Positions 11,204 through 55,302 of a DNA stretch of 64,000 bases are shown here, piece by piece. The notes under the pieces are model-generated. The model was not told the origin of the DNA, searched no databases, and worked only from the letters and a program-made list of their open reading frames with translations. Location: contig OY762428.1 of NCBI GenBank assembly GCA_963665665.1, positions 2,255,007 through 2,319,006 of the forward strand. Direction: 5' to 3'. The position numbers and the translations under genes were made by a program. Position 1 is the first letter of the stretch. Each line of letters begins with the position of its first letter. Source of the DNA: Candidatus Kapaibacterium sp. GTDB taxonomy: Bacteria > Bacteroidota > Ignavibacteria > Kapaibacteriales > UBA2268.

Positions 11204-11851
11204 ATGATAGAATTTAAAGATATATATCAAAAATATAAGGGCAGGGAGCTTTTCGGCGGGCTAAACCTTTTTATTGAAAAGGGCGAAAAAGTTGTTCTGA
11301 GCGGCTCGTCCGGTTCGGGGAAGAGCACGCTGCTTGCTTTTGCAATGGGATTTCTGCTGCCGGACAAAGGAACTATTGTTATTAACGATTTGCATTTGAA
11401 CGCAAAAAATATTGATGAAATCAGATATCTGATGGCATGGCTGCCGCAAAACACTACATTTGCAGGAGAGGGAATTGTACGTGAAGCCATAATGAAACCC
11501 TTTAGTTTCAGATTGAATAAATCCGTTACTCCATCGGAAAAAACTATTCGTTCAGGACTTGAAAAAATCGGGCTTGAGCAGGATATTCTTGATTCAAAAT
11601 TCGACGATATTTCCGGAGGCGAAAAACAGAGAATCGGTATACTTACCTGCTCGCTGCTGAACAGGCCGATAATGATTCTTGACGAACCTACGTCCGCCCT
11701 TGACGAAATGTCTATTGCGCTGGTTACTGATTTCATTCTTTCAGCCCCGGACAGGACGGTTCTGTCAACCTCGCATGAGAACCTGTGGGTAAATGCCTGC
11801 GATAAAATTGTAAAAGTTGGCCCAAACGGAGGTGAAAATGGGATCAATTGA
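11204..11851 (+). CDS. fetA: ABC transporter ATP-binding protein (FetA-like)
   Basis: Walker A LSGSSGSGKSTLL, signature LSGGEKQRIGI and Walker B ILDEPTSALD. It is about 215 aa with no fused TM domain and is paired with a UPF0014-type permease, as in E. coli fetAB. The track start at 11183 is TTG; the ATG at 11204 was used. Confidence 0.75.
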   Translation: MIEFKDIYQKYKGRELFGGLNLFIEKGEKVVLSGSSGSGKSTLLAFAMGFLLPDKGTIVINDLHLNAKNIDEIRYLMAWLPQNTTFAGEGIVREAIMKPFSFRLNKSVTPSEKTIRSGLEKIGLEQDILDSKFDDISGGEKQRIGILTCSLLNRPIMILDEPTSALDEMSIALVTDFILSAPDRTVLSTSHENLWVNACDKIVKVGPNGGENGIN

Positions 11852-12626
11852 TATAAGCTGGCTGAACCTCGCGCTGGGATGCCTGTGCCTGATAGTTCCG
11901 ATTGGAATACTTAGCTATTTCAAAACCGGGCTTGGCAAAGCGGCTCTCGGAGCTTACGCCAGGATGACAGGACAGCTTGTTCTGGTAGGGCTATACCTCG
12001 GGGTGGTATTCGATTATAATTCCATATATGTAAATGCCGCCTGGGTAATATTGATGATAGTTGCAGCTTCGTTTACGATTGTTCAGCGCACAGAGCTGAA
12101 AAAGAAATATTTTCTTCTTCCGGTTATGTCCGGAGTAATAGCCGGAACGGTATTTACCGGCGCTATATTTCTATTTCTTGTTATAGGCCCCGACGAATTC
12201 TTCAACGCGAGATACATAATCCCGATAACCGGGATGATAATCGGCAACTGCCTGAACAGCTCAATAATCGGTATTCGCTCTTTTTATAAATCCATTGATA
12301 AGGAATACGAAAGATATAAATACTTCCTGATGAGCGGAGCCGACAGGAAGGAAGCGCTCTTCGATTTTATGAGCGAGGCGCTGAAGTCTGCATTCGGCCC
12401 CAGCGTAGCTTCAACTGCAACTATCGGGCTAATCTGGCTGCCGGGAATGATGACAGGCCAGATACTTGGCGGCAGCGACCCCATGCTTGCCATTAAATAC
12501 CAGGTGCTTATAGTTGCTTCAATTTTTGCCGGGGCTTCGCTGACAGTTTTTACTTCAATAAGTATTTCCCGCAAACTTGCATTTGATGATTTCGGGATGA
12601 TAAACAGGAATGTTTTCGGGAAGTGA
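11838..12626 (+). CDS. fetB: ABC transporter permease, UPF0014/YbbM (FetB-like iron export permease)
   Basis: About 260 aa with 7-8 TM helices. The conserved C-terminal region ...LPGMMTGQILGGSDPMLAIKYQ... matches the FetB/YbbM family. The ATG at 11838 is preceded by GGAGG. Confidence 0.65.
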   Translation: MGSIDISWLNLALGCLCLIVPIGILSYFKTGLGKAALGAYARMTGQLVLVGLYLGVVFDYNSIYVNAAWVILMIVAASFTIVQRTELKKKYFLLPVMSGVIAGTVFTGAIFLFLVIGPDEFFNARYIIPITGMIIGNCLNSSIIGIRSFYKSIDKEYERYKYFLMSGADRKEALFDFMSEALKSAFGPSVASTATIGLIWLPGMMTGQILGGSDPMLAIKYQVLIVASIFAGASLTVFTSISISRKLAFDDFGMINRNVFGK

Positions 12627-24175: not shown

Positions 24176-25756
24176 TTATCTGATCACAACAAATTTGCCG
24201 CTGTAGGAGCGCTTGTTTGCAGTCATCCGGATAATATATGATCCTGATTTATTAATCCTGAATGGCATGTTGTAAATACCCGCGTTCATACTGCCGTTTT
24301 TAATATCCAATACTTTATAGCCCAGGAGGTCATGTACGCTGATCGAAACATTCGAAGCCTCGCGAAGCTCGAATGAGACAGTTCCTTCACCCGTGGGGCT
24401 GGGGCTTGGATATACTTTCAGTCCGGACCGGCCGCCTGCAACCGGGTCATTTACCGATACATCGCGGGGTTCCAGAACACCTATAGGCATATACTGCTCG
24501 CCAAAAACAGCCGCACTATCCTGTGGTTCAGCACCGAGCCATGTTTCCAGGAAATCCGTGTAGGTTCTGCGGTAATCAAACTGGTGGCGCACGTCGCCGT
24601 CCTCATCCAGGTCGTCCAGGTCAGGTTTTTCACCGTAATAACCGGCTTTCACGTGATCTCCGAAAACAAACTGCATGGAAGCTGCGCCGTGGTCAGTTCC
24701 ACGCGATCCGTTATCGTAAGCCCTGCGGCCAAATTCCGATGTTGTCATTCCTACAACTCTTTCCGACCATCCCTGCTGCACGGCATCGTCCATGAACTCG
24801 CATATTGCAGCGGCAGCCTGCTGCAGGAGTGTCGGGTGCTGGCCTTCGAAATCTTCGGTCATCTGCTGGGCATGTGAATCGAAATTACTAAGATTTACAT
24901 AATACACTTTGGATTGCAGGCCTCCGGCTATAAGCGCGGATATCATTTTAAATTTCTGTGGTAGCCCCTCACTGTAATTCACTTTGATTTTCTCAATTCC
25001 GGCATCGTAGGCTGCTTTTACTTTCTGCGAATAAAGTTCTGACTGCTGGGCTATTACTCTTGCGAAATTAAATTCGTTATCAAAAGCACTGTCGCCTGTC
25101 ATAATAGGTTCAACCGGAGTCAATCCCTGTCCAAGTTCGTAGAATTTATCCGGATCGGTAAGTGCTATGCCCATGTGTCCCTTATCGCTTTTGAATGTAA
25201 GCGACAGCGAGCCGTCAATATTCACTGCTATCGGATCCTCGGGTATTTCCTGGGGATAATTTTCAAGCATATTTGCGAAATATCTTCCCAGCCAGCCCTC
25301 GTTCAGGTTCACGCTGTTGTTTGAATTATTTATACCACTCAGCCAAATATCCTGGGATCGAAAATGCGAAAGATTGGGATTAACATATCCAACTCCTTCG
25401 ATAATGGCAAGCCTGCCGTCTTCAAGAAGGCGCATCATCCCGCCGTTGTGTATCCCGTCAACGATGGATTTATTCATGTAAACATCCGAAGTCTGGAAAC
25501 GTCTTGTTTCGGCTTCGGGATAGGCAAGCGTAGGCCTGAGGTTGTAATAAGTATCGTTATACACCGGAACAATTGTGTTCAGCCCGTCATTTCCGCCGAA
25601 AAGTTCCAGTATTATCATGATATTATCATTTTCGTTATTTAATATCCTGTCGTTCGGGACGGTTGAAAATATCGGTTTCCCCTTAAGGAATGCCGGGGCA
25701 ACTGCCGCTCCGGCTGTAGCAACTGCTGTGCTTTTAATAAATTGTCTTCTTTTCAT
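24176..25756 (-). CDS. DUF1501 (sulfatase-like) protein with Tat signal and T9SS C-terminal sorting domain
   Basis: Twin-arginine motif MKRRQFIKSTAVATAGAAV; the central region is DUF1501-like. The last roughly 80 aa (VYPSPSPTGEGTVSFEL...GSYIIRMTANKRSYSGKFVVIR) form a Por/T9SS C-terminal domain. Confidence 0.7.
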   Translation of the reverse strand: MKRRQFIKSTAVATAGAAVAPAFLKGKPIFSTVPNDRILNNENDNIMIILELFGGNDGLNTIVPVYNDTYYNLRPTLAYPEAETRRFQTSDVYMNKSIVDGIHNGGMMRLLEDGRLAIIEGVGYVNPNLSHFRSQDIWLSGINNSNNSVNLNEGWLGRYFANMLENYPQEIPEDPIAVNIDGSLSLTFKSDKGHMGIALTDPDKFYELGQGLTPVEPIMTGDSAFDNEFNFARVIAQQSELYSQKVKAAYDAGIEKIKVNYSEGLPQKFKMISALIAGGLQSKVYYVNLSNFDSHAQQMTEDFEGQHPTLLQQAAAAICEFMDDAVQQGWSERVVGMTTSEFGRRAYDNGSRGTDHGAASMQFVFGDHVKAGYYGEKPDLDDLDEDGDVRHQFDYRRTYTDFLETWLGAEPQDSAAVFGEQYMPIGVLEPRDVSVNDPVAGGRSGLKVYPSPSPTGEGTVSFELREASNVSISVHDLLGYKVLDIKNGSMNAGIYNMPFRINKSGSYIIRMTANKRSYSGKFVVIR

Positions 25757-35317: not shown

Positions 35318-38300
35318 TTATCTTACAATATTTAGTTTTCTTGCATAATCCTTACCGCCGGTTCTGATGATAATCAGGTAGGTTCCGGATGGAATTTCGC
35401 TGATATCAAATTCAACATTACGGCTGCCTATAAGATTTTCTTTATCATACAAGTTGCCGATAATTCTGCCAGTCATATCAACAAGATCTATCCTGATATT
35501 TAATGGGTTAGTAAATTCCAAAGGTATTGCTACCTTATTGTGTGCCGGGTTCGGAGAAGGCATTCCTATTGAGTATCCTTCGCCTTTGATAATTTCATTA
35601 ACAGATCCCGGATCTACTGCAAAGCCTTCAAGAACAACTGATAAAGGAGAATTATCGGCAATGCTGTAAACTTTCAGCTCGCCTTTTCTTAATCCGGCTT
35701 TCGCAGGTTTGAACCTTATGCGGAATCTTTCTGTCTGTCCTATCTGTATTTGTTCGGGGGCAGCCATCATAAACGAGAACTCTGCGTCCCCTCCCTGTGG
35801 ATCGTCATCGGTGATAACTGAATTTGTAATATCAATATCAACTTCGCCGGTATTTTCAATTTCTGCAAAGGATGTTTTGGTTTTCCCGACCTCAAGAGTA
35901 TCAAATACAAGTTTATTACCTGTTTTCAGGGTCAGTTCCTTCTTTGCCCCGGGGGGTATATAATTAAACAGCAGATTGTTAATATATTGCGAGAAATACC
36001 ATACAAGCATTTTGTTTCCACTTTGCGGCACTGCGCAACCGGTCTGTGCTCCGTTTGCTTCTTCTGATAAAGCCGGGAACCACTTTTGCCCCATATTCGA
36101 AGAAAGATAAACCTGGCCTCCGCTGCCAATAATTCCTATCATCTCGGATTCAGGCGGGCTGAACAGATTTACAGGACGCAAACCAATATCTGTAAGGTTG
36201 AATTTATTCTTAACCCAGTTGTTGCCACCATCACTTGTTGAAGCAACGAGCAAATCGGAATCGGCATCTGCCGATTCAGTATAAACAGCAATACCCTTGT
36301 TCTCATCAATGAAGCCGATATAATAAACATAACTGCCGGAATTAATCGTTGATACTCTCCAGTCAGCGCCACGGTTGGTAGTTCTGTAAACACGGCCCGT
36401 TGTTGTACCGAACCAGCCGTAATCTCCCATCCAGTATGTTGACCCGACATAACCGGTTTCCTGTGCTCCTGCAGCAGGGATACCTTCAACTCTTGCCCAG
36501 GTTTTACCGCCGTCAGTTGTTGAGCCTATACCCCAGTTCTCTCCCAACGGGTCACCGAGGAAAATACCATTATTCTCATCAAAGAAATTAATATCATTAA
36601 TAAAGCCGGTTATCGAATTTACAGCTATTGTTGACCATGAAGAACCCGTGTTAACTGTTCTGTATATTCTTGCACTTCCATTGGAAGGCCCGTCGCCAAG
36701 GCAGGCGGTTGTTTCATTGATAATTCCAACTGCATAAACAGGATTGTTTGTAGCTTTGTTTATCGTTGAACCATTAGGGCCGACCTTGAAATAAATACCA
36801 CCGTAAACAGCGCTCTGCCCGGCAGCCCAGACAACATTTGAACCCTGGTATTTGGCTGAATGAAATACAGCATAGAACCAGTCCGGAAGGGCTGTTACAT
36901 TATTAAATACATTGTTGCTGCCAATCTGTATCGGAATTCGAACCATCTGGTAGTCTGTATAATTAGTGGCTTCAAATTTAACCAGAAGTTTGGCATATCC
37001 CTCAAACCATGGATTTATATCAAGCAACCTGAGCCTTATATCAAAATCCTTTGTCTGGTTCATGGAAAGTACACCGATATTGAACTCACTGTTTTCAATG
37101 CTGACATATTTATCCATCGGTGTGATAGTTATCTTCAGGTCAGATACATTAGCAAGGAAGTTATGCGTTTCCATATTAATTATACGGCTTTCAAAGTTAT
37201 CAAGGACATCACTTCCTTCAATTGATAATTCTGTTATTTCGCATCCGGGAGCGCTAAGCTGAGGATTTTTATCATTATAAGCAAGGGCTTTATATGCATT
37301 TATCCTTCCGTAAAGCAAGGGCCTTAGATCAGGATCCGATGTTAAAACATTATCAGATGTTGACCTTATCTGGTGGATGATCTGTTTCGGCGACCAATCC
37401 GGATGGTAAGCTGCAACAAGGCCACACACGCCTGCCGTTACCGGAGAAGCCATTGAAGTACCGTTCTGACTGGAGTATGTATCCGTTGGATATGTTGCCC
37501 TGATGCTCTGCCCGGGGGTAAAAACTGTCGTATAGTGGCCATAGTTACTGAAACTTGCCATTTTATTGTTTGAAGCAGAAGCACCAACGCAAAGTACGTT
37601 GTCATATTTTGCAGGATATTGATCGTAAGTATCCAGATTTGAACCGTCATTTCCTGCTGCAACTACAACAATTGAACCCATTTCGGTAACTTCGTTAATT
37701 ATTTCCTGTGCTGCCGGGCTGAAACCCGGGCCGCCCCAGGAACAGTTAATAATTTTTGCGCCCATTCTTGCAGCATAAAGAATACCTTCGTACCCACGGT
37801 AAATTCCCTGAACGCTCCCGTTGTCTGCACTGCATTTTACAGGCAGCAGCGAACAATTGAATCCTGTTCCGGCAACACCGAGTTCGTTATCGGTAACTGC
37901 TGATGCACATCCGGCAACATGTGTGCCGTGATGGTTCGATGTCAGAGCAGGTTTAGGATTATTGTCTTCCCTGAATGATCCGTTGGCAGCCTGGTTCTGG
38001 TCGATATTTCCCACAAGGTCCCAGCCGTTAACATCATCAATTTTTCCATTATTATCATCATCTTCGCCATTATCGGGAATTTCATTCGGGTTTGTCCAGA
38101 TGTTGGCTTCCAGGTCCGGGTGGTCAATCTGTGTTCCGGAATCAACAATACCTATAAGCACATCCTTGCTGCCTTTGCTGATATCCCATGCTTTTTTCAG
38201 TTCAATATTATTAACAGCCCACTGATTATTAAGAAGCGGATCGTTGGGTGTATATTCAAACGGTTGATGAATAAATACGGGAACGGCATATTCAACTTCC

Positions 38301-38767
38301 GGATTGTCCATCAGTTCCCGGCAGACATCATACGGATCAACAGGCGCTGAATATGTTAATTCATAAATTTTTGTAATCTCGCTGCTTTCGGTAGAAGGAG
38401 CATTCCTGTCCTCGAATGGCGCCCTGATTGATTTGATACCAAGGTCGCTGATAGAGGATTGAAGAGTTGAATTTCTGAATCCTTTGTCACCGGCATCGAC
38501 AAGGAATTTTTGCCTGGTTTTAATATGAATCATTCCCTGAACATAGTGTTCGGGTGATACTTTTGGAATACGATATTTTTTTGCTGCAGAATAGTAATCA
38601 GCAGAAATTTTCTTTCCCGGTACATTAATCGTATATGCGAGTTTGAAATCATCGTCAGTTTGTTTCACCGATTTCGGGTATTTAACCGGAGGAGCAGCTG
38701 CAAAAGCACCTGAACTTGCAACAGCAAACATTATCATCATACATAAAGCGGTCATTTTTCTTATCAT
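35318..38767 (-). CDS. S8 family (subtilisin-like) serine peptidase with BNR/Ycf48-like repeats and T9SS C-terminal domain
   Basis: The catalytic triad contexts are GIVDSGTQIDHPDL, HGTHVAGCAS and GTSMASPVTAGV. Repeated S/T-x-D-G-G-x-T/N-W blocks follow. The C-terminus (...TYLIIIRTGGKDYARKLNIVR) is a T9SS sorting domain. A signal peptide is present. Confidence 0.85.
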   Translation of the reverse strand: MIRKMTALCMMIMFAVASSGAFAAAPPVKYPKSVKQTDDDFKLAYTINVPGKKISADYYSAAKKYRIPKVSPEHYVQGMIHIKTRQKFLVDAGDKGFRNSTLQSSISDLGIKSIRAPFEDRNAPSTESSEITKIYELTYSAPVDPYDVCRELMDNPEVEYAVPVFIHQPFEYTPNDPLLNNQWAVNNIELKKAWDISKGSKDVLIGIVDSGTQIDHPDLEANIWTNPNEIPDNGEDDDNNGKIDDVNGWDLVGNIDQNQAANGSFREDNNPKPALTSNHHGTHVAGCASAVTDNELGVAGTGFNCSLLPVKCSADNGSVQGIYRGYEGILYAARMGAKIINCSWGGPGFSPAAQEIINEVTEMGSIVVVAAGNDGSNLDTYDQYPAKYDNVLCVGASASNNKMASFSNYGHYTTVFTPGQSIRATYPTDTYSSQNGTSMASPVTAGVCGLVAAYHPDWSPKQIIHQIRSTSDNVLTSDPDLRPLLYGRINAYKALAYNDKNPQLSAPGCEITELSIEGSDVLDNFESRIINMETHNFLANVSDLKITITPMDKYVSIENSEFNIGVLSMNQTKDFDIRLRLLDINPWFEGYAKLLVKFEATNYTDYQMVRIPIQIGSNNVFNNVTALPDWFYAVFHSAKYQGSNVVWAAGQSAVYGGIYFKVGPNGSTINKATNNPVYAVGIINETTACLGDGPSNGSARIYRTVNTGSSWSTIAVNSITGFINDINFFDENNGIFLGDPLGENWGIGSTTDGGKTWARVEGIPAAGAQETGYVGSTYWMGDYGWFGTTTGRVYRTTNRGADWRVSTINSGSYVYYIGFIDENKGIAVYTESADADSDLLVASTSDGGNNWVKNKFNLTDIGLRPVNLFSPPESEMIGIIGSGGQVYLSSNMGQKWFPALSEEANGAQTGCAVPQSGNKMLVWYFSQYINNLLFNYIPPGAKKELTLKTGNKLVFDTLEVGKTKTSFAEIENTGEVDIDITNSVITDDDPQGGDAEFSFMMAAPEQIQIGQTERFRIRFKPAKAGLRKGELKVYSIADNSPLSVVLEGFAVDPGSVNEIIKGEGYSIGMPSPNPAHNKVAIPLEFTNPLNIRIDLVDMTGRIIGNLYDKENLIGSRNVEFDISEIPSGTYLIIIRTGGKDYARKLNIVR

Positions 38768-44036: not shown

Positions 44037-44807
44037 TTAGAAATTATTCTCAACATCAAATGAACTAACCAGGAAACCCGGGTTCAGCAGTGATTCTTTG
44101 TTGTAGATAAAACGTCTGCCACCGTTCTCAACCATACCGCCAGCTGCTTCCACAACACCCTGGCCTGCAGCAGTGTCCCATTCCATGGTAGGCCCTCCCC
44201 GGAAATACAGATGGGCTTTGCCCTCGGCCACCATACAGAATTTCAGTGAGCTGCCCCTGGAAATTGACTCAACAACATTAAATTTCGCAAGGAATTCCTT
44301 TTCTGCTTCGCCGGCATGGGAACGTGACTGAACGGCGATTATTCCTTCGCCTGTGTTCTGATTAACTTTTATCTCTTCCTTAACTCCTTTGGTTATTTTA
44401 AAAGCACCTTCTCCTTTTGTTCCAATATAAATATCATCCAATACTGGCGCTGATACTATACCAAATACCGGGTAACCGTCTTCTATCAGGGCAATATTCA
44501 CAGTAAATTCGCCGTTACGTTTTATAAATTCCTTTGTTCCGTCCAGAGGGTCAACCAGAAAGAAGCGTCTCCAATTCTTACGGTTTTCGTAGGGAATTTC
44601 CTTCTCTTCCTCTGAAATAATTGGAATATCCGGGTAGAATTCTCTTAAAGATTCAGTAATAACCTTATTTGAAGCTTTGTCGGCTTTTGTAAGCGGAGAG
44701 TTATCCGATTTCATCTCAACTCCGAAATCATCAGTATGGTAAATATCCATAATAGCTTTTCCGGCTTCAATAACTATCTCAATCATTTTATCATTGTCAA
44801 TCAGCAT
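44037..44807 (-). CDS. cysQ: 3'(2'),5'-bisphosphate nucleotidase / inositol monophosphatase family (CysQ-like)
   Basis: The IMPase-fold motifs DPLDGTKEF and WDTAAGQGVVEAAGG; 256 aa. Confidence 0.75.
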   Translation of the reverse strand: MLIDNDKMIEIVIEAGKAIMDIYHTDDFGVEMKSDNSPLTKADKASNKVITESLREFYPDIPIISEEEKEIPYENRKNWRRFFLVDPLDGTKEFIKRNGEFTVNIALIEDGYPVFGIVSAPVLDDIYIGTKGEGAFKITKGVKEEIKVNQNTGEGIIAVQSRSHAGEAEKEFLAKFNVVESISRGSSLKFCMVAEGKAHLYFRGGPTMEWDTAAGQGVVEAAGGMVENGGRRFIYNKESLLNPGFLVSSFDVENNF

Positions 44808-46769: not shown

Positions 46770-48332
46770 ATGACAAATAATGTTATCAATCTGAAGAAAA
46801 AGATAAAAGATTTTAAAACCGAAGGAATCAAATTTTCCGTATCAGGCAGGGAAATTCTGCCATATTATGATATAATTGATTTTCTAAAAATATATTATCC
46901 GTTTATTAATTTGAAACAGATAGAAAGTTCATTTGGCAGTACATATATACCCTCTGATTTGTATGGCGGAAGGAAGTATAACCCTGAAAAATCATTTACT
47001 GACGGGCATATTGCAAAATTGGCTGAGAATAATATTAACTTATCTTTAACACTTACCAATCATTACTTTTCTCCGGATATTTACGAAAAAAGTAAATATT
47101 TACTTGAGAAATACCATAAAGCCGGCAATTCAGTAATATGTGTAAATGATGAACTTGCAAAACAGATAAGGATTGATTTCCCGAAATATCAGCTCAGGGC
47201 AAGTATTATTAAAAATATAAATACTTTGAAAAAAGTTGAGGAAAATCTGGAAATATATGATTTTATTGTGATACCCATGGATAAAAATGACGATGATGAA
47301 TTTTTGAAAAGCCTGCCGGAAAAGAAAAAAATTATGCTTTTTGCCAATGCATCATGCGCTTATTCATGCCCGACAAGAACCTGCTATAAAGGATTTTCGG
47401 AGGTAAATAGAGGTGGCGATCAGGTAAATCTTTGCTCAAGAAATAAAGTTGACAGATTGAACATGGGGCTTGTATTTTTTGATGTGCTGAAATTCAGGGA
47501 TATGGGATTTGATTATTTTAAACTTGTTCCTTTGAAACAATATAAAACTAATGATGTAATAAAATTTTACAGCGAAAAAAGACTAAAACAAAAAATTAAT
47601 TTTAATGAAAAAAACATGTTTTATTTGTGTTCATTCCCAAAATCCGGGAGGACATGGCTGCGCTTTATACTGGCAAATTATATTAATCTATATTTTAAAA
47701 CCGACGAAAAAATTAACCTTAACAATATGTTTGAATTCATTCCTAATAATATTTACGGAGGGCAAAAAGGTTTTGCCAGATTCAGATATTATAACAGGCC
47801 GGAAATACCACTAATTTTATCTACCCATGAGAAATACAATCCGAATATTTTCAGTGAAAAAAGAATAATATTTTTAAAAAGGAACCCTTTGGATACGATA
47901 GTATCATACTATTTTCATATTAAAAATGATCCGGGATATCGGGGAAATATAAGCGAATTTATAAGAGATAAAAAATTTGGTATCAGGTATCTGAAAAGAT
48001 ACTATAAATTATGGGAAAAAAATCTGAATAATGAAAGTCTTATTATAAGCTATGAGGATATGATAGATGATATTGAATCTGTTATCATCAATGTTTTGAA
48101 TTTTATTAATATTCAGGTTGATAATGAAATATTGAAGGAATCAATTAACAATTCTGATATTAATAATATGAGAAATTCAGAAAATCTGGTTAAAATCCCT
48201 GACATGAATGAAAGTGCCGTCAGGGTAAGAAAAGGAAAGACAAATAATTACATGAATTATTTGTCTGAAGAGGATATTAAATATTGTAATGATATTTTAG
48301 ATGTAAAATTACATAAACTATTGGAAAAATAG
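46770..48332 (+). CDS. two-domain protein: unknown Cys-containing N-terminal domain fused to PAPS-type sulfotransferase
   Basis: The C-terminal half carries the 5'-PSB motif FPKSGRTWLRFIL and the 3'-PB motif LKRNPLDTIVSYYFH. The N-terminal roughly 270 aa (..ANASCAYSCPTRTCYKG..) has no recognisable family. The gene converges on the lasso precursor gene. Confidence 0.65.
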   Translation: MTNNVINLKKKIKDFKTEGIKFSVSGREILPYYDIIDFLKIYYPFINLKQIESSFGSTYIPSDLYGGRKYNPEKSFTDGHIAKLAENNINLSLTLTNHYFSPDIYEKSKYLLEKYHKAGNSVICVNDELAKQIRIDFPKYQLRASIIKNINTLKKVEENLEIYDFIVIPMDKNDDDEFLKSLPEKKKIMLFANASCAYSCPTRTCYKGFSEVNRGGDQVNLCSRNKVDRLNMGLVFFDVLKFRDMGFDYFKLVPLKQYKTNDVIKFYSEKRLKQKINFNEKNMFYLCSFPKSGRTWLRFILANYINLYFKTDEKINLNNMFEFIPNNIYGGQKGFARFRYYNRPEIPLILSTHEKYNPNIFSEKRIIFLKRNPLDTIVSYYFHIKNDPGYRGNISEFIRDKKFGIRYLKRYYKLWEKNLNNESLIISYEDMIDDIESVIINVLNFINIQVDNEILKESINNSDINNMRNSENLVKIPDMNESAVRVRKGKTNNYMNYLSEEDIKYCNDILDVKLHKLLEK

Positions 48333-48344
48333 TTATTATGATAT

Positions 48345-48470
48345 CTAAGAAGTATGATAAGTATCGCTTTCGCCATCAGTTTCAGGTGGTGAAGAAATAT
48401 TTCCATCAGTATCGCTTGAATCAAAATCAATTACCTGTGGCTTTTTCCATTCTTTTTTATTGTCTTTCAT
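48345..48470 (-). CDS. lasso peptide precursor (A) - 41 aa, not in ORF track
   Basis: Manual translation of the minus strand gives MKDNKKEWKKPQVIDFDSSDTD/GNISSPPETDGESDTYHTS. There is a Lys-rich leader with Thr at -2, a core starting with Gly, Glu at core position 8, and a C-terminal ...YHTS. Compare my recollection of the paeninodin precursor, MKKQYSKPSLEVLDVHQTM-AGPGTSTPDAFQPDPDEDVHYDS. The ORF lies 70 bp downstream of the cyclase gene on the same strand. Confidence 0.6.
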   Translation of the reverse strand: MKDNKKEWKKPQVIDFDSSDTDGNISSPPETDGESDTYHTS

Positions 48471-48540
48471 AATCAATTCTTTTTTTTTAAATATATATCA
48501 ACTTAATCTGGATATAATATACTTAATTGTACAGTTAAAT

Positions 48541-50490
48541 TCAAATTTCTATTTGTTCAATAAATTTAATAGTAGCTATAGTATGCAGAATCAGCTTTGT
48601 TGTTTTTGAAAACAGATCCTGAGTATATTTCTCTGATTTTATATTCTCAAGAGTTTCTGATATTTTATTCTTATCGAATCGAATAATTCCATCATTGCTA
48701 TATGTATTAATAACTTTTTCAGTCCTGTTCATATCCAGTAAAACGCGATATGAAAGATCCTTTGCCTGCTTGCCGCGTTTGGTATTGCTAAGAACTTTTT
48801 CGGGCAATTTTCCTTTCATAGCGCTTCTGATGAGATAACGTCCGATACCTTCGTGTTTGAATAATCCAGCAGGTATTTGTTTTGTAAATTCGCTAACGCG
48901 CCTATCGTTTGTGGCATCCCTGGTTTCAATTTTATTTATTAAATTATAATCAATATTACTATTAGATCCTGTATTGGATATATGTTTTTCAAGTACTTTC
49001 CTGTTTTCGAAATTATTCAATTTATTATTTCTGTATTTAATAGCAGATTTGGCTTTTAACTGGTTCAGATGTTTATCTATTAATTCGAATCTGTTCAGCG
49101 TTTCTTCGCAAAATGGAATCAGGTGATCCCTGCCAAGAGATTCATGTAATTTTTTCGGGAAAAGACCTGAAAGCTTTGTTTTAGTTATTTTGCGAATACT
49201 TCCTAAAGATGTTGTAAACAACGATTTATTTGTATGCCGGGATTCAGACTTCCATTCTGAAAATAATTCTATCAATTTATATTGTCTCAGCAGATCATGA
49301 TAAAGGCCTGCGCCTGTTCTGGAAATTGTTAAATTACCGGCCTGGCCGTTAAGAAGCACATTAACATTATCCCCGGCTGCAAGCTGCAATATCCGCCAAT
49401 GCCAGAAGCCGTTTTGAAAGTTAGAAGTGAATAGTTTGTTATATTTCAAGTCAATATCTATCGCGTCAATAGGGTAGAAATCCTTAGCGTTAACAAAGTT
49501 GTGAGCAATATCATCGGGATACATATCCAGGATGGATTGAACATAAGGGGTTTCATCAGAAATCGACTTGATTTTCGGGCATTTATCAGGGTAAGCCGGA
49601 ACAGAAGAATAGGAATATATCTTTTTCCCTTTTTTTCTTAGTTGATCAATTGCCAGTACAGTTGAAGAACTTGAATCCAGGCCTCCGCTCAGGTTAGAGC
49701 CTGTCCTTCCTTTTGTGCTAATTCTTTTAGATACAGCGTCGCTGTATATATCAAGAAAATGTTCAATATAATCATCGTTATTTTTATAATTGATCGGAGA
49801 TAAATTTTCCGGTTTCCACCAGCGTTCTTTTTTTTCTAATCCTGAAGAAGAGAAAATATAATTGTGGAATCTATTAATATTGAAAATATTTGTATAAAAT
49901 GTATCCTCATCGCCGGATTTAACCTGAAATGGCAGCATTCTGCAAATAAGATGTTCATAATTGACTTCGGGAGTAAAATCCGGTAGTTTAAAAAATGCTG
50001 TTATTGTTGAAGAAAAGTAAATTGCTTTCGATGTTTCATAATAATACAATGGATAAATGCCGCTATGCCCTGATAATATAATTATTTTCCTGTCCTGTTT
50101 GTCCCAAATCAGCGGCATTAAATCACCAAAGATATGATTGTTTGTATCAAATTCCCATTTTTCGAAAGCATGAAGATAAAGACTGATATCGGACAATTTA
50201 TCTATATCTGTTTTTCCGGCAAGGCCCAAAGAATTTATTAGATCATCCCTGTTGTCAATCCTCATTCTCCCGGCGCCGATATACCTCCCGGACGGAGATT
50301 TAACAGGTTGTTCTTCTATCGGATTTTCAGTAAGTATGTCAATGTTCATCTGCACGAGAGCAAAGTTCCCGTCAGTAAAATAGTTATAGCTGTCGTATTG
50401 AACATCATCATAAGCAGATCTCATTTTTTCCAGTATATCAATATCAGCCGGGCTGATATCCTTATTAAAAAAAGCAATTGTGATAGTCAT
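48541..50490 (-). CDS. lasso peptide cyclase (C protein), asparagine synthetase B homologue
   Basis: PP-loop SGGLDSSSS, a length of about 650 aa, and an Asn-synthase-like N-terminal domain. The gene abuts B2 and B1. Confidence 0.8.
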   Translation of the reverse strand: MTITIAFFNKDISPADIDILEKMRSAYDDVQYDSYNYFTDGNFALVQMNIDILTENPIEEQPVKSPSGRYIGAGRMRIDNRDDLINSLGLAGKTDIDKLSDISLYLHAFEKWEFDTNNHIFGDLMPLIWDKQDRKIIILSGHSGIYPLYYYETSKAIYFSSTITAFFKLPDFTPEVNYEHLICRMLPFQVKSGDEDTFYTNIFNINRFHNYIFSSSGLEKKERWWKPENLSPINYKNNDDYIEHFLDIYSDAVSKRISTKGRTGSNLSGGLDSSSSTVLAIDQLRKKGKKIYSYSSVPAYPDKCPKIKSISDETPYVQSILDMYPDDIAHNFVNAKDFYPIDAIDIDLKYNKLFTSNFQNGFWHWRILQLAAGDNVNVLLNGQAGNLTISRTGAGLYHDLLRQYKLIELFSEWKSESRHTNKSLFTTSLGSIRKITKTKLSGLFPKKLHESLGRDHLIPFCEETLNRFELIDKHLNQLKAKSAIKYRNNKLNNFENRKVLEKHISNTGSNSNIDYNLINKIETRDATNDRRVSEFTKQIPAGLFKHEGIGRYLIRSAMKGKLPEKVLSNTKRGKQAKDLSYRVLLDMNRTEKVINTYSNDGIIRFDKNKISETLENIKSEKYTQDLFSKTTKLILHTIATIKFIEQIEI

Positions 50491-50495
50491 ATTTA

Positions 50496-50825
50496 TCAGC
50501 TAAAGTATTCTACAACGGTGAATTGCCTCATGCCCTCGCGTCCGGTAACAATTCTGTTGCCGGAGCGGAGCCATGCATGAGCTTTCATTTTTTGATCATT
50601 ATCTTTCGCCACGCCAAAGTAGATGGTTGATTTTATTTTTCTTCTGCCAAGCATCCATTTTACGGTTAATGCTTTGTCATAGCATTTGGATTCCCAGGGA
50701 GATTCACGAAAGGCGCGATTTGCCGCCCTGTTTACTTTCATAATAATATTCTTTTCCTGAGCATTTAATTCCATTTTTTCGCTTTCTTTCCTTTTCTTTC
50801 CAATAAGGAAGGAATAGTATCTCAT
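50496..50825 (-). CDS. lasso peptide biosynthesis B2 protein (transglutaminase-like leader peptidase)
   Basis: ...WESKCYDKALTVKWMLGRRKIKSTIYFGVAKD....KAHAWLRSGNRIV shows the Cys/His (HAW) core of McjB-type B2 proteases. The track start is TTG; an ATG lies at 50825. Confidence 0.8.
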   Translation of the reverse strand: MRYYSFLIGKKRKESEKMELNAQEKNIIMKVNRAANRAFRESPWESKCYDKALTVKWMLGRRKIKSTIYFGVAKDNDQKMKAHAWLRSGNRIVTGREGMRQFTVVEYFS

Positions 50826-50938
50826 AGGCAGCAAAAGAATAATTACTCTGGCAAAAGCATCATTTATAAGGGCTTCGATAAATAGTAATTTATCTTCAAA
50901 AAGGAAGCCGTAGAAATTCCTTATTTTCCTAAAAATTT

Positions 50939-51220
50939 TCAGGACTTCACATCAATAAGTTTCATTTTTACGAGTTTTTCCAGAAATTCCGTTGTGTCTT
51001 TTTCGCATACTTCCCTGTCGATATTATATTCTTCGAGTAGTTTATTTACCAGGTCGCCAAAGCTTATTTCATTTTCAATTTTTGCCCATATTACTGATCC
51101 AATCTCGTCGAAACCATAGTATTTGCTGGTTTCTACGCTCATCATTACAGTCTGGTTGTCAATCTCGCTGCTGATAAAATCATCTTTCCTGATGATTATT
51201 GTATTGCCTGTTATTTCCAT
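50939..51220 (-). CDS. lasso peptide biosynthesis B1 protein (PqqD-like RiPP recognition element)
   Basis: 93 aa with the PqqD-family pattern ...SKYYGFDEIGSVIWAKIENEISFGDLVNKLLEEYNIDREVCEKDTTEFLEKLVKMKLI. Confidence 0.75.
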   Translation of the reverse strand: MEITGNTIIIRKDDFISSEIDNQTVMMSVETSKYYGFDEIGSVIWAKIENEISFGDLVNKLLEEYNIDREVCEKDTTEFLEKLVKMKLIDVKS

Positions 51221-51251
51221 GATATTTATCTATATGTTAATAAATGATAAA

Positions 51252-51301
51252 ATTCTTTACATAAGGAACGAACTCTGATAAGAAAACACGATTTTCTTTA
51301 C
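51252..51301. repeat. direct repeat copy (32-bp unit AACTCTGATAAGAAAACACGATTTTCTTTACA plus partial unit) downstream of Fic gene
   Basis: One full unit plus the preceding partial unit ttctttaca-taaggaacg are identical to the spacers in the 52383-52496 array. Confidence 0.7.
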
Positions 51302-51313
51302 AAAGAATAAAAA

Positions 51314-52375
51314 CTATCCGATTTTCAATAATTCCATCAATTTTTCATTGACATAATAATTCCCTGTGCCAAGCCGGTGTTTTGTCAGCAGGCCGTCATT
51401 TGCCATCTCGTTTAAATATTTTGCGGCGGTTATTCTTGATACTCCTAGATCTGTTTCAAGGAATTCAATTTTCGTATAAGGATGTTTGAATAAATTGTTC
51501 AGTAAATCCTGGCTGTAGAATTTATATTTTGAACGTATAATATTTTTATATTCAAATATCAATTCCCGGATATTTTTTATTAATACTATTGTTTCCAGGG
51601 AAGTTTGTTCAACACATTCAAGGATATAAATCAGCCAGTTTTCAAAAATATTGCTTTGCCTGACATCCTGTAACAGATTGTAATAATGTTCTTTGTTTAA
51701 TATAATATATCTGCTATGGTACAAGATCGGTAATTTTAATAGGTCTTTCAGAACAAGATATAACACATTCAATATTCTTCCTGTTCTGCCATTTCCATCA
51801 TAAAACGGATGAATGCTTTCGAATTGATAATGTATTATTGCCATTTTTACCAAAGGATCCAAATCAGAAATCGAATCGTCATTGATGAAGAGTTCAAGAT
51901 TTGACATAAGCTCAAGAATTTCATTCGGATCCTGGGGCGGAGTATAAACTATGTCTCCACTTGTATCATTTTTCAGCACAGTTCCCGGTACTTTCCTGAA
52001 ACCGGCAGAATTTTTTTCAAGTTCCTCCTGAATTTCAAGAATGGTATTTCTTGTTATCATCCCGCTTTCAGAAACCAGGGCAAAACCTTTCTTAAGCGCC
52101 GAACCGTAGTTTTGAACTTCTTTTGCGTTAAGGGAATCAAAACCGTCAAGATTCAGTTCGGATTTATACAGGTCATCGTGTGTTGTGATGATATTTTCTA
52201 TTGCCGAACTGTCTTTTGCTTCCTGAAGCCCCAGAGTATTTATTAAAATATTCTCATTGGGAATTGTTGTTGAAATACCTTTCAATTCGGCGAGCGCTCT
52301 GTGAGCAGAAGAAAGTTTTTTGAGAACTTTTACAGTCTCCAGTTCTACTTTATTATATGGTAATTTCTGTATCAT
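51314..52375 (-). CDS. Fic/Doc family protein (Fic_N + Fic core + C-terminal winged-helix)
   Basis: Fic motif HPFYDGNGRTGR and N-terminal Fic_N pattern (MIQKLPYNKVELETVKVLKKLSSAHRALAELKG). The first 16 codons of the track ORF start at TTG and are simply a translation of the upstream repeat array, so the start was moved to the ATG at 52375. Confidence 0.85.
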   Translation of the reverse strand: MIQKLPYNKVELETVKVLKKLSSAHRALAELKGISTTIPNENILINTLGLQEAKDSSAIENIITTHDDLYKSELNLDGFDSLNAKEVQNYGSALKKGFALVSESGMITRNTILEIQEELEKNSAGFRKVPGTVLKNDTSGDIVYTPPQDPNEILELMSNLELFINDDSISDLDPLVKMAIIHYQFESIHPFYDGNGRTGRILNVLYLVLKDLLKLPILYHSRYIILNKEHYYNLLQDVRQSNIFENWLIYILECVEQTSLETIVLIKNIRELIFEYKNIIRSKYKFYSQDLLNNLFKHPYTKIEFLETDLGVSRITAAKYLNEMANDGLLTKHRLGTGNYYVNEKLMELLKIG

Positions 52376-52382
52376 AATTTCA

Positions 52383-52496
52383 AACTCTGATAAGAAAACA
52401 CGATTTTCTTTACAAAGATACAAAACTCTGATAAGAAAACACGATTTTCTTTACATAAGGAACGAACTCTGATAAGAAAACACGATTTTCTTTACA
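52383..52496. repeat. three tandem direct copies of 32-bp unit AACTCTGATAAGAAAACACGATTTTCTTTACA with 9-bp spacers
   Basis: Exact copies at 52383-52414, 52424-52455 and 52465-52496. Each contains the dyad AGAAAA-n5-TTTTCT. The array lies immediately upstream of the Fic gene, between it and the sulfotransferase gene. Confidence 0.8.
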
Positions 52497-52499
52497 TAG

Positions 52500-53369
52500 T
52501 TAAACCAGAATATCTCCATTTTCAGAAAGGTATCCATATTTTTTCATTATTTCCGAATGGTTTGCGATTATTGATTCAACCATAGCATCGTTCAGCTGAT
52601 TTCGCCAGGCGCCCTTTTTGCCTTTGCGGAAGAAGGATTCGGATTTTGGATTCTTTTCCTTAAAGCCGTGCTCTTTTTCCATTTCTTTTAATTTGTCAAA
52701 TGTGCTTAGTCCAACTGCTTTTGAAATTTGCCCGTGCGTGTAATCGAAATCTGTAAATTCCAAAGCCCGTGTGAATTCTTTTACAGGATCGTCCTTCATA
52801 TCTTCATATCTCAAAATAATAACCGGAATTTTATCCTGCTCAGTCCAGCTTCTGATATGCAGGCTCCATGACAGGAGTTTTTGCCTAAGCTGGTTATGAA
52901 GAGTACCGTCGTTGGTACAAAAAGCGAAATTCTCGTTGTTCATATCCAGGATACTTTTATGAATCGGTTTATTTGAATGATGTGCAAAGGAACAGGCTAC
53001 ATCAAAAGGATTCCTTATAATATATACAGCTGAATGGCTAATTTCTTCCGGGAACATTGGCCGCCCGTCAGGTAGAAGTGTATAAGCGTCATGCGTTTTC
53101 AGGAATCGTTTGTCTTCTTCAAATTCATCGGCAAGGTGTTTGTATATATCCGGCCTTGCCAGGTCAATCTCATCCATTGTCAGATCGGAAGCGGCAGTTC
53201 CGGCCAGATCGTCAAATGTATCCCGGCTGCTGGAAATAGGGCCTCCAGTCAGGTTATTTATATCTGCCGGTTCAGAATAACCCATTACAAGATTTGTGAA
53301 AAATACTCTGAACCATGTGTTACCTGATTTTGGGTAGGAGGCAAGCCAGATTATTTTTTTATTTTCCAC
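52500..53369 (-). CDS. PAPS-dependent sulfotransferase
   Basis: 5'-PSB motif SYPKSGNTWFRVFF and 3'-PB motif IIRNPFDVACSFAHH; 289 aa. It apparently starts at GTG and overlaps the kinase gene stop. Confidence 0.8.
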   Translation of the reverse strand: MENKKIIWLASYPKSGNTWFRVFFTNLVMGYSEPADINNLTGGPISSSRDTFDDLAGTAASDLTMDEIDLARPDIYKHLADEFEEDKRFLKTHDAYTLLPDGRPMFPEEISHSAVYIIRNPFDVACSFAHHSNKPIHKSILDMNNENFAFCTNDGTLHNQLRQKLLSWSLHIRSWTEQDKIPVIILRYEDMKDDPVKEFTRALEFTDFDYTHGQISKAVGLSTFDKLKEMEKEHGFKEKNPKSESFFRKGKKGAWRNQLNDAMVESIIANHSEIMKKYGYLSENGDILV

Positions 53370-54273
53370 TATTAGCCTCCAAATCTTTTAGTATTGCGTC
53401 AACAATCATTGCAGGATCCGATTTCATCCTAATCCTGTTAAGTTTTCGTATAAAGATATCTTTGGAGTTTGCTATTTGTGTTAAAAAGATAAAATGTTTG
53501 TCCGGCTGTCCGGTTCTTTGAACAAATCTTTTACGGTATGTTGAATTTCTTAGAAATTTGATTTTCTTAATTGAATCAATTTCTGATATTTCAATATCTT
53601 CAAAAGGCCCCGGCTTTATAAAATATATTCCCATTACCGGCCTTGATTTTTCAATATCGTGTATTGATATTGGAATTCTGAATTTTTCCTGTTCTTCTCT
53701 TATCTTTTCGATATTTGAATAATCTGTTTTCAGCATTTTCAGGCTGTCATTCCAAAGTTTAATCTCTGAATGTCCGGGAATTATTGATATAATCCCATCG
53801 TCGTCTATAGTTAATAATGAAGTATCGTCACAAAGCAGGCCGTATCCTCTTTTTACAAATTCAGCGGCAATGGTGGATTTTCCGGCGCCTGATTTCCCTG
53901 AGAAAAGTAATGCCCTGCCATCGATTTCCACTGCGCTGGCATGGAGGGCGAATATTCCGCGCTGATGCGCCAGGGCCCCGAGAACTGATCCGAAAAGGAA
54001 TACTTTTAACTCGGATTCCGAAGTATCGGGATTAAGGTCAACAGTAATAGTCCTGCCGTCTTCAACAAGGAATCTTCCCACGCTTTCTAAGTTAAATAGA
54101 AATTTGCCCGGGGCTGCGGAATATAAAGGATAGACCTGTGCATTTCCGTTCAATTTTTCAGGTACGTCACCTTTGCGGATTATAACATCGCTTTCTTTTT
54201 CTGTTTCCGGAAGTCCGGAAAACTCGAATTCCGAGTCAAATACAAAACCGTATGCGTAATATTTTTTTCTCAT
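53359..54273 (-). CDS. HPr kinase/phosphorylase C-terminal-domain-like kinase (lasso peptide kinase candidate)
   Basis: P-loop GKSGAGKSTIAAEF followed by LLCDDTSLL, as in the HprK_C fold. It is co-located with the lasso B1/B2/C genes, as in paeninodin-type clusters. Confidence 0.75.
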   Translation of the reverse strand: MRKKYYAYGFVFDSEFEFSGLPETEKESDVIIRKGDVPEKLNGNAQVYPLYSAAPGKFLFNLESVGRFLVEDGRTITVDLNPDTSESELKVFLFGSVLGALAHQRGIFALHASAVEIDGRALLFSGKSGAGKSTIAAEFVKRGYGLLCDDTSLLTIDDDGIISIIPGHSEIKLWNDSLKMLKTDYSNIEKIREEQEKFRIPISIHDIEKSRPVMGIYFIKPGPFEDIEISEIDSIKKIKFLRNSTYRKRFVQRTGQPDKHFIFLTQIANSKDIFIRKLNRIRMKSDPAMIVDAILKDLEANSGK

Positions 54274-54279
54274 AGTATA

Positions 54280-55302
54280 TTATTTGGTTTTAATTTTTAA
54301 ATAATCAAAAACTATATAAAATGGAATTAAAGGATAATTTAGGTATCTGAATATTCCGGGAAATTTAATTTTTGATATATATGATATAGAATAAAAAGAT
54401 CCAAAAAATATTTTCAATTTAAAAAAAATGGATCTTTTCAATTTCATTTTATAAATAATAGAATCAACAATACTATTAAAAGTCTTGATATCATAGGGAA
54501 TCAGTATTCTTTTTACACAGAAATCACTTAATTTTCCATGAAACTCTATATTATCATTCAACTTAATTTTGTGATTATAAATATACGATAAAAGATTTAA
54601 TAAAGGGAAGTAAAGGCGTTCTAAATGATATCTTTCCGCAAGTTTCCCTGCTGCAAAAAACAAATCAGGACGATTCATGTATATAAAATGTATATCCCGA
54701 AGCCAAAATAGACGATTCCAGAAATGTATTCCTCCATGAATAATCAAAAAAAGAATATTTTCTGTTGATAAGGAGCTATAATCTACATAAATTTTAGATA
54801 GGTCATATTCAGTGTTAACATTTTTGGGAATCCAATTATGTTTAAATAATTTCCAATGAAGTTCAATTAAAATATTGGTTTTTGAACTAACAAATTTCAT
54901 CTGATTATTTCTGCGAAATAATTCATTAAAATTCTCTTTGTTGTAATCACTATAATCCTTATAAATTTTAATATTGTTCTCAGTTAAAACTTGTATAGCT
55001 TTATTGATATTTTTAAATTCAATCAGGATATCAATATCTCTGCTCATCCTATCCGCCGGATCTGAGTATAGAAGCCCGGTTATTCCCGGCCCTTTCAGGT
55101 TTCTGAATTTAATTCCATTAATTTCAAGAATTTTGGAAATTCGTTTCAATTCAGTATTGATAACAAGCATTTTCCGGGTTTCTATTTTAATCAGGCTATC
55201 TATTTGTGTCAATATTGACTCGCTGAGATACGAACTATATAATTTCAATTTTCTAAGTGCAGGAAGAAGCAGGCGATGCCTTCTGCCAAGCTTTACAAAC
55301 AT
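54280..55302 (-). CDS. nucleotidyltransferase family protein (PF14907-like)
   Basis: 340 aa; ...GLLYSDPADRMSRDIDILIEF is consistent with a polymerase-beta-like NTase motif. It is the first gene of the minus-strand cluster. The ORF stays open upstream of the ATG to about 55470, so the true start is uncertain. Confidence 0.55.
   Translation of the reverse strand: MFVKLGRRHRLLLPALRKLKLYSSYLSESILTQIDSLIKIETRKMLVINTELKRISKILEINGIKFRNLKGPGITGLLYSDPADRMSRDIDILIEFKNINKAIQVLTENNIKIYKDYSDYNKENFNELFRRNNQMKFVSSKTNILIELHWKLFKHNWIPKNVNTEYDLSKIYVDYSSLSTENILFLIIHGGIHFWNRLFWLRDIHFIYMNRPDLFFAAGKLAERYHLERLYFPLLNLLSYIYNHKIKLNDNIEFHGKLSDFCVKRILIPYDIKTFNSIVDSIIYKMKLKRSIFFKLKIFFGSFYSISYISKIKFPGIFRYLNYPLIPFYIVFDYLKIKTK

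Follow-up and report, generated by a model that had tools for sequence, protein, structure and literature searches.

Locus Organization

The subject of this analysis is a gene cluster lying between positions 46,770 and 55,302 of a 64,000-nt stretch of DNA (the window) from contig OY762428.1 of Candidatus Kapaibacterium sp. (GenBank assembly GCA_963665665.1, forward-strand positions 2,255,007 to 2,319,006). A listing of open reading frames (ORFs), together with Pfam and NCBIfam profile searches, revealed the order N-K-ST1-[fic]-B1-B2-C-A on the minus strand in the direction of transcription, that is, a nucleotidyltransferase (N), a kinase (K), a sulfotransferase (ST1), a Fic protein, the recognition element (B1), peptidase (B2) and cyclase (C) of a lasso peptide pathway, and a precursor peptide (A). 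On the plus strand, X-ST2 converges on A, the two stop codons being separated by 12 nt. None of the eight biosynthetic ORFs is truncated or interrupted by a stop codon. The known part of the locus is that of the paeninodin-like lasso peptide biosynthetic gene clusters (BGCs); what is new is an uncharacterized tailoring branch and an unannotated, enzyme-like domain, X.

An initial annotation, prepared from the sequence alone, had named these genes, assigned their strands and described a convergent fusion of an unknown domain to a sulfotransferase. Every gene was found where it had been placed, profile searches confirmed the families, and the fusion is borne out by the ORF listing and the profiles. 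The cluster had also been called complete, a description to be qualified: the exporter is missing, the operon is split by fic and B2 is without a canonical start in front of its conserved N-terminus. The features are collected in Table 1.

Table 1. Features of the lasso peptide cluster, numbered from the first nucleotide of the window.
Feature	Position	Strand	Description
N	54280..55302	-	PF14907 (NTP_transf_5) nucleotidyltransferase, 340 aa; heads the operon; Pfam E 5.4e-29
K	53359..54273	-	HprK-like Ser kinase, 304 aa; PF07475 34.4 bits (cut-off 33.3)
ST1	52500..53369	-	Stand-alone sulfotransferase of the 3′-phosphoadenosine 5′-phosphosulfate (PAPS) type, 289 aa; PF00685 Sulfotransfer_1 E 8e-28
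Tandem repeat array	52383..52495	-	Three exact 31-nt copies of GTAAAGAAAATCGTGTTTTCTTATCAGAGTT between the ST1 stop and the fic start
fic	51314..52375	-	Class II (SoFic-like) Fic protein of 353 aa, counted from ATG 52375
Fourth repeat copy	51253..51301	-	31-nt repeat, 10-nt spacer and the initial 8 nt of another copy
B1	50939..51220	-	PqqD-type RiPP (ribosomally synthesized, post-translationally modified peptide) recognition element, 93 aa; PF05402 E 1.7e-17
B2	50496..50942	-	Transglutaminase-like leader peptidase; PF13471; NF033537 82 bits
C	48541..50490	-	Asn-synthetase-like macrolactam cyclase, 649 aa; PF00733/PF13537
A	48345..48470	-	41-aa precursor; leader MKDNKKEWKKPQVIDFDSSDTD (22 aa), core GNISSPPETDGESDTYHTS (19 aa)
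X-ST2	46770..48332	+	520 aa; X domain residues 1-~280, sulfotransferase residues 285-516
CysQ	44037..44807	-	3′(2′),5′-bisphosphate (3′-phosphoadenosine 5′-phosphate) nucleotidase; TIGR01331 302 bits (cut-off 229)

Precursor Peptide and Core Enzymes

A WxxP motif with its Trp at −15 is a published hallmark of paeninodin-like leaders, the geometry having been reported for PbaA, and this Trp is described as almost invariant in paeninodin-like precursors (PMC13381572). The leader of A possesses the motif EWKKPQV (WxxPxV) with Trp at −15, Pro at −12 and Thr at −2, while its core starts with Gly1, has Glu at position 8 and ends with Ser19. These features fit the general lasso pattern of a [Y/W]xxPx[LVIFA] leader motif with Thr at −2 and an Asp/Glu among core positions 7-9. 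An alignment of 11 precursors from the window and related loci reveals that the leader Lys, Trp and Pro and the C-terminal Ser are invariant and that Thr(−2) is nearly so; the Ser is the sole invariant residue of the core. The leader, this Ser and the HprK-like kinase agree with the paeninodin-type class that had been proposed. Gly1-Glu8 is the preferred ring, and phosphorylation is predicted at Ser19. The dehydrated core has a computed mass of 1974.81 Da. It contains eight Ser/Thr/Tyr and four acidic residues but lacks basic residues; a product of roughly 1.9 kDa had been expected, and the figure is thus better given as about 2.0 kDa. In a motif scan, A was the only lasso-like WxxP small ORF of the window; the other hit, a 58-aa ORF at 9215-9391, was unlike a precursor and was rejected.

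Both B1 (87 bits on NF033536, lasso_PqqD_Bac, cut-off 80) and B2 (cut-off 33 on its model) score above the curated lasso thresholds, and B2 retains the invariant Cys and the HAWL motif. C possesses a GATase domain alongside Asn_synthase and an SGGLDSS motif, and its top NCBIfam match is the lasso cyclase model NF033535. Among 5.8e9 proteins, C has only seven relatives of at least 49% identity, after which the next match falls to 31%; those whose contexts were read (n = 4; L001, L005 and L006/L007) all lie amid lasso genes.

To examine the start of B2, its reading frame was analyzed and its sequence aligned with those of four homologues. A protein of 112 aa results from the first canonical start, TTG at 50834, and a conserved N-terminal stretch of approximately 36 residues (LLFIEAL...; DKLLFIEALINDAFARVIILLLP) lies in frame and open upstream of it (window 50834-50951). 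A CTG at 50942-50940, overlapping the B1 stop (cCTGA), would give a B2 of 148 aa. This suggests that B2 either uses a non-canonical or coupled start, or is an N-terminally truncated protein.

Related Loci and a Sister Strain

Colinear loci were found in other genomes (L001, L006, L090 and L002), so that the gene arrangement is not due to chance. The closest is L001, a 297-kb metagenomic contig with the order N-D-K-ST1-B1-B2-C, in which D is an ABC exporter; a homologue of X-ST lies 2 kb upstream of N. Identity to the window proteins is 31-56% for all seven. It possesses five precursor genes (497-616, 9012-9137, 9633-9758, 11563-11691 and 12020-12157), the leaders of which are near-identical and the cores very different. 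Next to this cluster are a phage-type integrase and a HicAB pair. L006 reads D-K-ST1-B1-B2-C, and L090 reads K-ST-B1-B2-X-ST-C, where X is a separate gene inside the cluster. L088/L089 contain X, five precursors, K-ST-C, an ATP-grasp gene, CysD and CysN/C, and in L002 (Draconibacterium) two lasso clusters lie side by side, equipped with X-ST, N, D, ATP-grasp genes and an APS (adenosine 5′-phosphosulfate) kinase.

A sister strain, represented by the 64-kb contig L092, shares 94.7-97.3% DNA identity with the window and has this locus too, likewise with fic and lacking D; its many frameshifts are probably assembly errors. Alignment fails only across the precursor region (L092 2399-2551 versus window 48299-48562). 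The L092 precursor (leader MEKNDKKEWKKPQVIDFDVDNTY, core NSNVSNVDTDGGGTGVASPYITDS) keeps the leader and the terminal Ser, and its core is unrelated and longer. Comparison of the two sequences indicates that only the core cassette was exchanged, the rest of the locus being nearly identical. Retention of the leader with exchange of the core is the pattern expected of a RiPP precursor under selection and argues that the locus is, or lately was, in use.

Kinase, Nucleotidyltransferase and the Sulfation Branch

The best NCBIfam match of K is TIGR04352 (HprK_rel_A, E 1e-12); its Walker A motif is GKSGAGKST, and the orthologues of L001, L006 and L090 are 35-37% identical. N occupies a position equivalent to that of the L001 N protein (31% identity); it was identified by its Pfam family, and it is by family, rather than by direct sequence comparison, that we set it beside PsmN of the pseudomycoidin cluster. 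PsmN has been shown in vivo to add hexose(s) to phospho-Ser (review PMC8498205), so that the role of the nucleotidyltransferases, initially described as unproven, is so no longer; only the sulfotransferase partners remain uncharacterized, as had been stated. Kinase-containing lasso clusters were noticed as early as 2014, together with a sulfotransferase lacking an assigned role (PMC4289311). The paeninodin kinase and the pseudomycoidin nucleotidyltransferase have been characterized (PMC8498205).

ST1, which is 54% identical to the ST1 proteins of L001 and L006, begins at a GTG that overlaps the 3′-end of K by 11 nt. The two genes also overlap or abut in L001, L002, L006 and L088, and the apparent translational coupling of ST1 to K in every relative seen suggests joint action. 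The motifs read from the ST1 sequence are PKSGNTW, RNPFDVACS and RKGKKGAW. ST2 is likewise a Sulfotransfer_1 protein (E 4e-26), and the 5′-phosphosulfate loop, 3′-phosphate motif and catalytic His of the ST1/ST2 pair read PKSGNTW/PKSGRTW, RNPFDVACS/RNPLDTIVS and KTHD/STHE, respectively. A search with the sulfotransferase profile placed cytosolic SULT-type enzymes as the closest solved structures, followed by the glycopeptide sulfotransferases Teg12, Teg14 and StaL. From domain content and comparative context, we infer that both enzymes use PAPS to O-sulfate the peptide or its appendage; candidate acceptors are Tyr16, the many Ser/Thr residues, or a sugar or phosphate on Ser19.

Genes for sulfate activation occur in or beside two of the related clusters: a CysD-like gene of the PAPS_reduct family with a CysN/APS-kinase fusion in L088 (6647-9870), and a stand-alone APS kinase in L002 (2936-3568). 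Together with the ATP-grasp genes of these loci, they point to heavier tailoring in some members. In the window, CysQ lies 2 kb from the cluster, with an MBL-fold (metallo-β-lactamase) hydrolase and a DUF2807 protein in between; it may remove the sulfotransferase by-product, or may be merely a housekeeping gene whose position is coincidental. The PAPS-binding motifs of ST1 and ST2, the sulfate-activation genes of L088 and L002 and the nearby CysQ all speak for genuine sulfation in this family of clusters. Sulfation is rare among RiPPs generally. Known examples include RaxX, some methanobactins, conopeptides and two lanthipeptides (PMC11143521). The literature searched for lasso peptides with sulfotransferases or sulfation contained no characterized sulfated lasso peptide, and that searched for lasso peptides with U32 proteins contained no paper.

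The X Domain

Residues 1-280 of X-ST2 gave no Pfam match even at E = 10, and a search with eight family members and their profile likewise gave no Pfam or PDB sequence match at E ≤ 10; the Peptidase_U32 signature is absent. The homologues include more than 100 full-length proteins of approximately 540 aa as well as stand-alone X proteins of approximately 287 aa, and the hosts of X-ST proteins include Draconibacterium, Labilibaculum, Scalindua, Rhodoferax, Methylomonas, Halarcobacter, Desulfobacteraceae and others. Alignments reveal 25 invariant residues: R27, G56, Y65-G-G-R68, L95-T96, H98, H116, A130, S145, P169-M170, N173, L179, F191, C196, Y198, C200, C205, C222, F237, G246 and K251.

X-ST2 was modeled confidently using AlphaFold, with a predicted local distance difference test score (pLDDT) of 87.8 for the whole protein; X alone gave a pLDDT of 90.5 and a predicted template modeling score (pTM) of 0.89. 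The model of X is an eight-stranded β/α barrel of the triosephosphate isomerase (TIM) type, and the majority of the invariant residues sit at the strand ends or directly past them, placed as in a TIM-barrel active site. Fold comparison indicated a single clear structural relative, a U32 "peptidase," the TIM-barrel fold of which X shares. Within U32, UbiU/UbiV are 4Fe-4S-containing, O2-independent hydroxylases, and RlhA, a proposed Fe-S binder, hydroxylates 23S rRNA; prephenate is the oxygen donor identified for anaerobic ubiquinone synthesis (PMC6747719, PMC10990095).

A profile search of 1.84 billion representatives placed 687 clusters in the X family at E ≤ 1e-3. The architectures include X-Sulfotransfer_1, Sulfotransfer_2-X, Sulfotransfer_3-X, X-Sulfotransfer_3, TPR-X and X-DUF4915; because X has been fused independently to three sulfotransferase families, and in both orders, there is strong evidence that it works with sulfotransferases. 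The close clade, comprising the sulfotransferase-fused proteins and the stand-alone ones of approximately 287 aa, is found with lasso clusters in 5/6 independent contexts from several phyla. Two more distant members (L093 and L095) have contexts that are non-lasso or too short to tell. In L093 (5045-5782), a 245-aa stand-alone X lies amid small unannotated genes and an Asp/Arg hydroxylase in a possibly phage-like context, and so the wider family extends beyond lasso clusters.

The fic Insertion and the Missing Exporter

The Fic protein is composed of Fic_N, Fic and SoFic-like_C domains and matches NF046030 (E 2e-107) with 359 bits, under the model's 550-bit cut-off; its active-site motif HPFYDGNGRTGR and its inhibitory motif SSAIEN are both intact. 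The gap between ST1 and B1 is 20 nt in L001 and 22 nt in L006, and in L090 the two genes are consecutive, 220 nt apart. Because related loci have ST1 directly before B1, fic is a later insertion, as had been suspected, and by this comparison lies outside the pathway. The possibility that Fic is a tailoring enzyme was rejected, no related cluster having one.

The insertion is flanked by repeats. The 31-nt repeat has a 41-nt period in the tandem array and an inner palindrome (AAGAAAA-TCGTG-TTTTCTT); it is found in four exact copies in the window, where none would be expected, and all flank fic, three upstream and one downstream. Since the 49-nt stretches 51253-51301 and 52447-52495 are identical, fic is bracketed by a 49-nt direct repeat. 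The 23-nt core of the repeat had no exact match among metagenome contigs. The repeats could be an operator array for the winged helix-turn-helix-bearing Fic protein, a mobile-element end, or the footprint of the insertion event.

The initial annotation had also noted the lack of a dedicated ABC exporter, and no gene of the ABC_membrane type was found among the window ORFs scanned. In the window, K begins 6 nt past the N stop, at the very site that D occupies in L001, from which we conclude that the exporter normally found between N and K has been lost.

Genomic Context

The nearest named relatives of the seryl-tRNA synthetase are 65-72% identical and come from Ignavibacteria, Kapabacteria and "Bacteroidota bacterium" metagenome-assembled genomes, so that the host is closest to an Ignavibacteria/Kapabacteria-like member of the Fibrobacterota-Chlorobiota-Bacteroidota (FCB) group. 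A scan of genome contigs with the cyclase gave no match, and one with enolase gave matches of only 62-72% scattered across many phyla, which did not help to place the host. The type IX secretion system (T9SS) ascribed to this genome is reflected in two window proteins with T9SS C-terminal sorting domains, which fit that placement. These Por_Secre_tail proteins (window 35318-38767 and 24176-25756) are an S8 subtilase of 1149 aa and a DUF1501 protein with a twin-arginine (TAT) signal, the latter beside a DUF1800 gene. No Rfam family matched within the window, and a scan for sigma-70 promoters and terminators was uninformative, with promoter-like sites no more numerous than in shuffled sequence and terminator-like sites fewer.

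Comparison with Known Systems

Paeninodin (Paenibacillus dendritiformis C454) and its Bacillota relatives share with the window the split B1/B2, C and an HprK-like kinase, as well as a precursor that combines a WxxP leader and Thr at −2 with a terminal Ser, the residue that the kinase phosphorylates on the linear precursor; some such clusters also contain a PF14907 nucleotidyltransferase and a putative sulfotransferase (PMC8498205, PMC13381572). The window differs in its FCB host, the absence of D, the location of A downstream of C, the coupling of ST1 to K, the second sulfotransferase fused to X, the inserted fic and the rare clade to which its cyclase belongs. Pseudomycoidin (Bacillus pseudomycoides DSM 12442) shares the kinase and the PF14907 nucleotidyltransferase, which in the window is directly upstream of K. 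In that system, the C-terminal Ser is phosphorylated by K and the phosphate then receives one or two hexoses from N (PMC8498205); no sulfotransferase has been described as acting on the peptide. The polyphosphorylated lasso peptides known from Proteobacteria (for example, those of Sphingobium yanoikuyae; Zhu et al. 2016, as cited in PMC8498205) have in common with the window a Gram-negative host and an HprK-type kinase acting on the C-terminal Ser; there the kinases add several phosphates, and in the account given by that review neither a sulfotransferase nor X is reported.

X shows no detectable sequence similarity to the U32 superfamily (Mk0906, structure 5D88; UbiU/UbiV, RlhA and TrhP); it also has another Cys spacing, is fused to sulfotransferases and has as its presumed substrate a peptide rather than a quinone or RNA. 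Among RiPP sulfotransferases, RaxST (acting on RaxX), SslST/SscST of the sulfonated lanthipeptides and the putative MbnS of the methanobactins share PAPS-dependent O-sulfation of a ribosomal peptide, and some sulfated-RiPP BGCs carry their own PAPS-synthesis genes (PMC11143521), as do some relatives here. The RiPP class in the window is a different one, that of the lasso peptides.

Proposed Pathway

Gene content, gene order and the precursor features are taken from the sequence, hidden Markov models and synteny, and the chemical steps from analogy or inference. By analogy with the paeninodin-like systems, B1 would bind the WxxPxV leader of the 41-aa precursor and K would phosphorylate the C-terminal Ser while the precursor is still linear. 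B2 would then cut after Thr(−2)-Asp(−1), removing the leader, and C would close the Gly1-Glu8 isopeptide ring around the tail to give a 19-residue, strongly acidic lasso (1974.8 Da). Like PsmN of the pseudomycoidin cluster, N may decorate the phosphate, here with a sugar or a nucleotide-derived group. From their domain content and comparative context, ST1 and ST2 would transfer sulfate from PAPS onto the peptide or its appendage. X is presumably a catalytic TIM barrel of U32-related fold, which most probably prepares or presents the acceptor for ST2; our preferred, speculative guess is an oxygen-independent hydroxylation, after which ST2 would sulfate the new hydroxyl.

Alternative Interpretations

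We regard it as probable that the region is a paeninodin-like, split-B lasso cluster with an uncharacterized sulfation branch and X, and one that is perhaps still active. Several observations weigh against parts of this assignment. C reaches 233 bits on NF033535, the only lasso cyclase model of NCBIfam and a narrow one, where the cut-off is 525. Most related cores possess a "DG" approximately 10 residues past the leader Thr (TDG, LDG or KDG, with EG in one), which in the window core corresponds to D10-G11; this may be the ring-forming acid, which would need another cleavage register, or a second recognition or modification site. In addition, two L001 precursors, the cores of which start NAPPGNN… and ANTTSFNP…, have their sole acidic residue at core position 10 or 11 when Thr is set at −2, which implies that cleavage follows another register or that the ring is unusual in size. 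Membership in the linear polyphosphorylated peptide (LPP) family, which is characterized by YxxP, an SpI-type signal peptidase and no cyclase (PMC13381572), was considered and rejected because the window cluster has WxxP, B2 and C.

A further set of observations bears on whether the cluster still works. D is absent from the window cluster while it is present between N and K in L001 and next to K in L006; fic and its repeat array part N-K-ST1 from B1-B2-C-A, so that co-expression may suffer; and frame analysis found no ATG, GTG or TTG ahead of the conserved N-terminus of B2. These could be read as successive steps in the decay of a remnant that yields no mature, exported lasso peptide, which we think rather unlikely. 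Many lasso clusters have no dedicated exporter, which we count against decay, as we do the intact state of every biosynthetic ORF and the segment upstream of B2, which is still open and conserved in sequence. Moreover, L092 has an equal layout with a new core behind the kept leader and terminal Ser, a sign of ongoing precursor selection. Because the ORFs are intact and the core is diversifying between strains, the cluster may still be active.

It might also be asked whether X-ST2 belongs to the pathway, since it could be a mere neighbor of the cluster that sulfates something else in the cell, for instance a lipid, a glycan or a small molecule. It is encoded on the opposite strand, and its position varies, from downstream of A in the window to upstream of N in L001. 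The homologue of Methylomonas methanica (L003; CP002738.1, 4079619-4101265) is found in a cluster without a lasso cyclase, where its neighbors are a further sulfotransferase, a pair of aryl-sulfotransferase-like genes, a 2OG-Fe(II) oxygenase and a single B2-like (Transglut_core3) gene; this cluster may make a different sulfated product using the X-ST module. The distant stand-alone X of L093, in its unrelated context, points the same way. Against this stand the 5/6 close-clade contexts, from different lineages, in which X or X-ST is beside or within a lasso cluster, the location of X between B2 and C in L090 and directly ahead of the five precursor genes in L088, and the precursor gene abutting the 3′-end of X-ST in the window, L001 and L002. 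A mere neighbor is, in our judgment, improbable, and we retain X-ST2 as a lasso tailoring protein.

A further alternative concerns the sulfate acceptor and X. Rather than on amino-acid side chains, the sulfotransferases may act on the group built by K and N at the C-terminal Ser, that is, on sugar hydroxyls or the phosphate, with X serving as a binding or hydrolytic module instead of a hydroxylase. This is possible, though we lean against it. The coupling of K and ST1 described above favors it, as does the Ser being the only invariant core residue, a Tyr near the C-terminus being frequent but not universal; moreover, Pfam classes U32 proteins as peptidases. Conversely, L088 and L090 keep ST1 and have no N gene in the sequenced stretch, and four invariant Cys residues together with a conserved barrel mouth are what would be expected of a redox or metal enzyme. 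The hydroxylase proposal is, for its part, a tentative one and on present evidence somewhat doubtful: X would be a sequence-orphan branch of U32, an Fe-S-dependent, O2-independent peptide hydroxylase making the hydroxyl that its partner sulfotransferase sulfates. It is weakened by the lack of a sequence-level link to U32 in the Pfam and PDB profile searches and by the spacing of C196, C200, C205 and C222 (CX3CX4CX16C), since most U32 families have four conserved Cys spaced CX6CX15CX3/4C (PMC6747719).

Significance

The value of lasso peptides lies in their use as antibiotics and as very stable scaffolds. A 2025 survey lists structurally characterized members only from Pseudomonadota, Actinomycetota and Bacillota, with clusters predicted in Bacteroidota (PMC12214591), and the literature searched describes both phosphorylated and phosphoglycosylated lasso peptides (PMC8498205). 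The locus and its relatives constitute a multi-phylum lasso set in which K is coupled to a sulfotransferase and a second sulfotransferase is partnered with a U32-like, four-cysteine barrel; two of the related loci hold genes for synthesis of the sulfate donor within or beside the cluster. They offer a testable route to a new lasso modification, to a function for the sulfotransferases noted since 2014 in such clusters, and to one for the X family of approximately 690 clusters, which has no Pfam model. The product of the cluster may be the first sulfated lasso peptide. If the hydroxylase proposal is correct, it would be a phosphorylated, hydroxylated and sulfated lasso peptide that may also be glycosylated, X would be the first U32-type enzyme in RiPP biosynthesis, and X-ST would represent a portable "hydroxylate-then-sulfate" cassette of mostly anaerobic or microaerophilic lineages.

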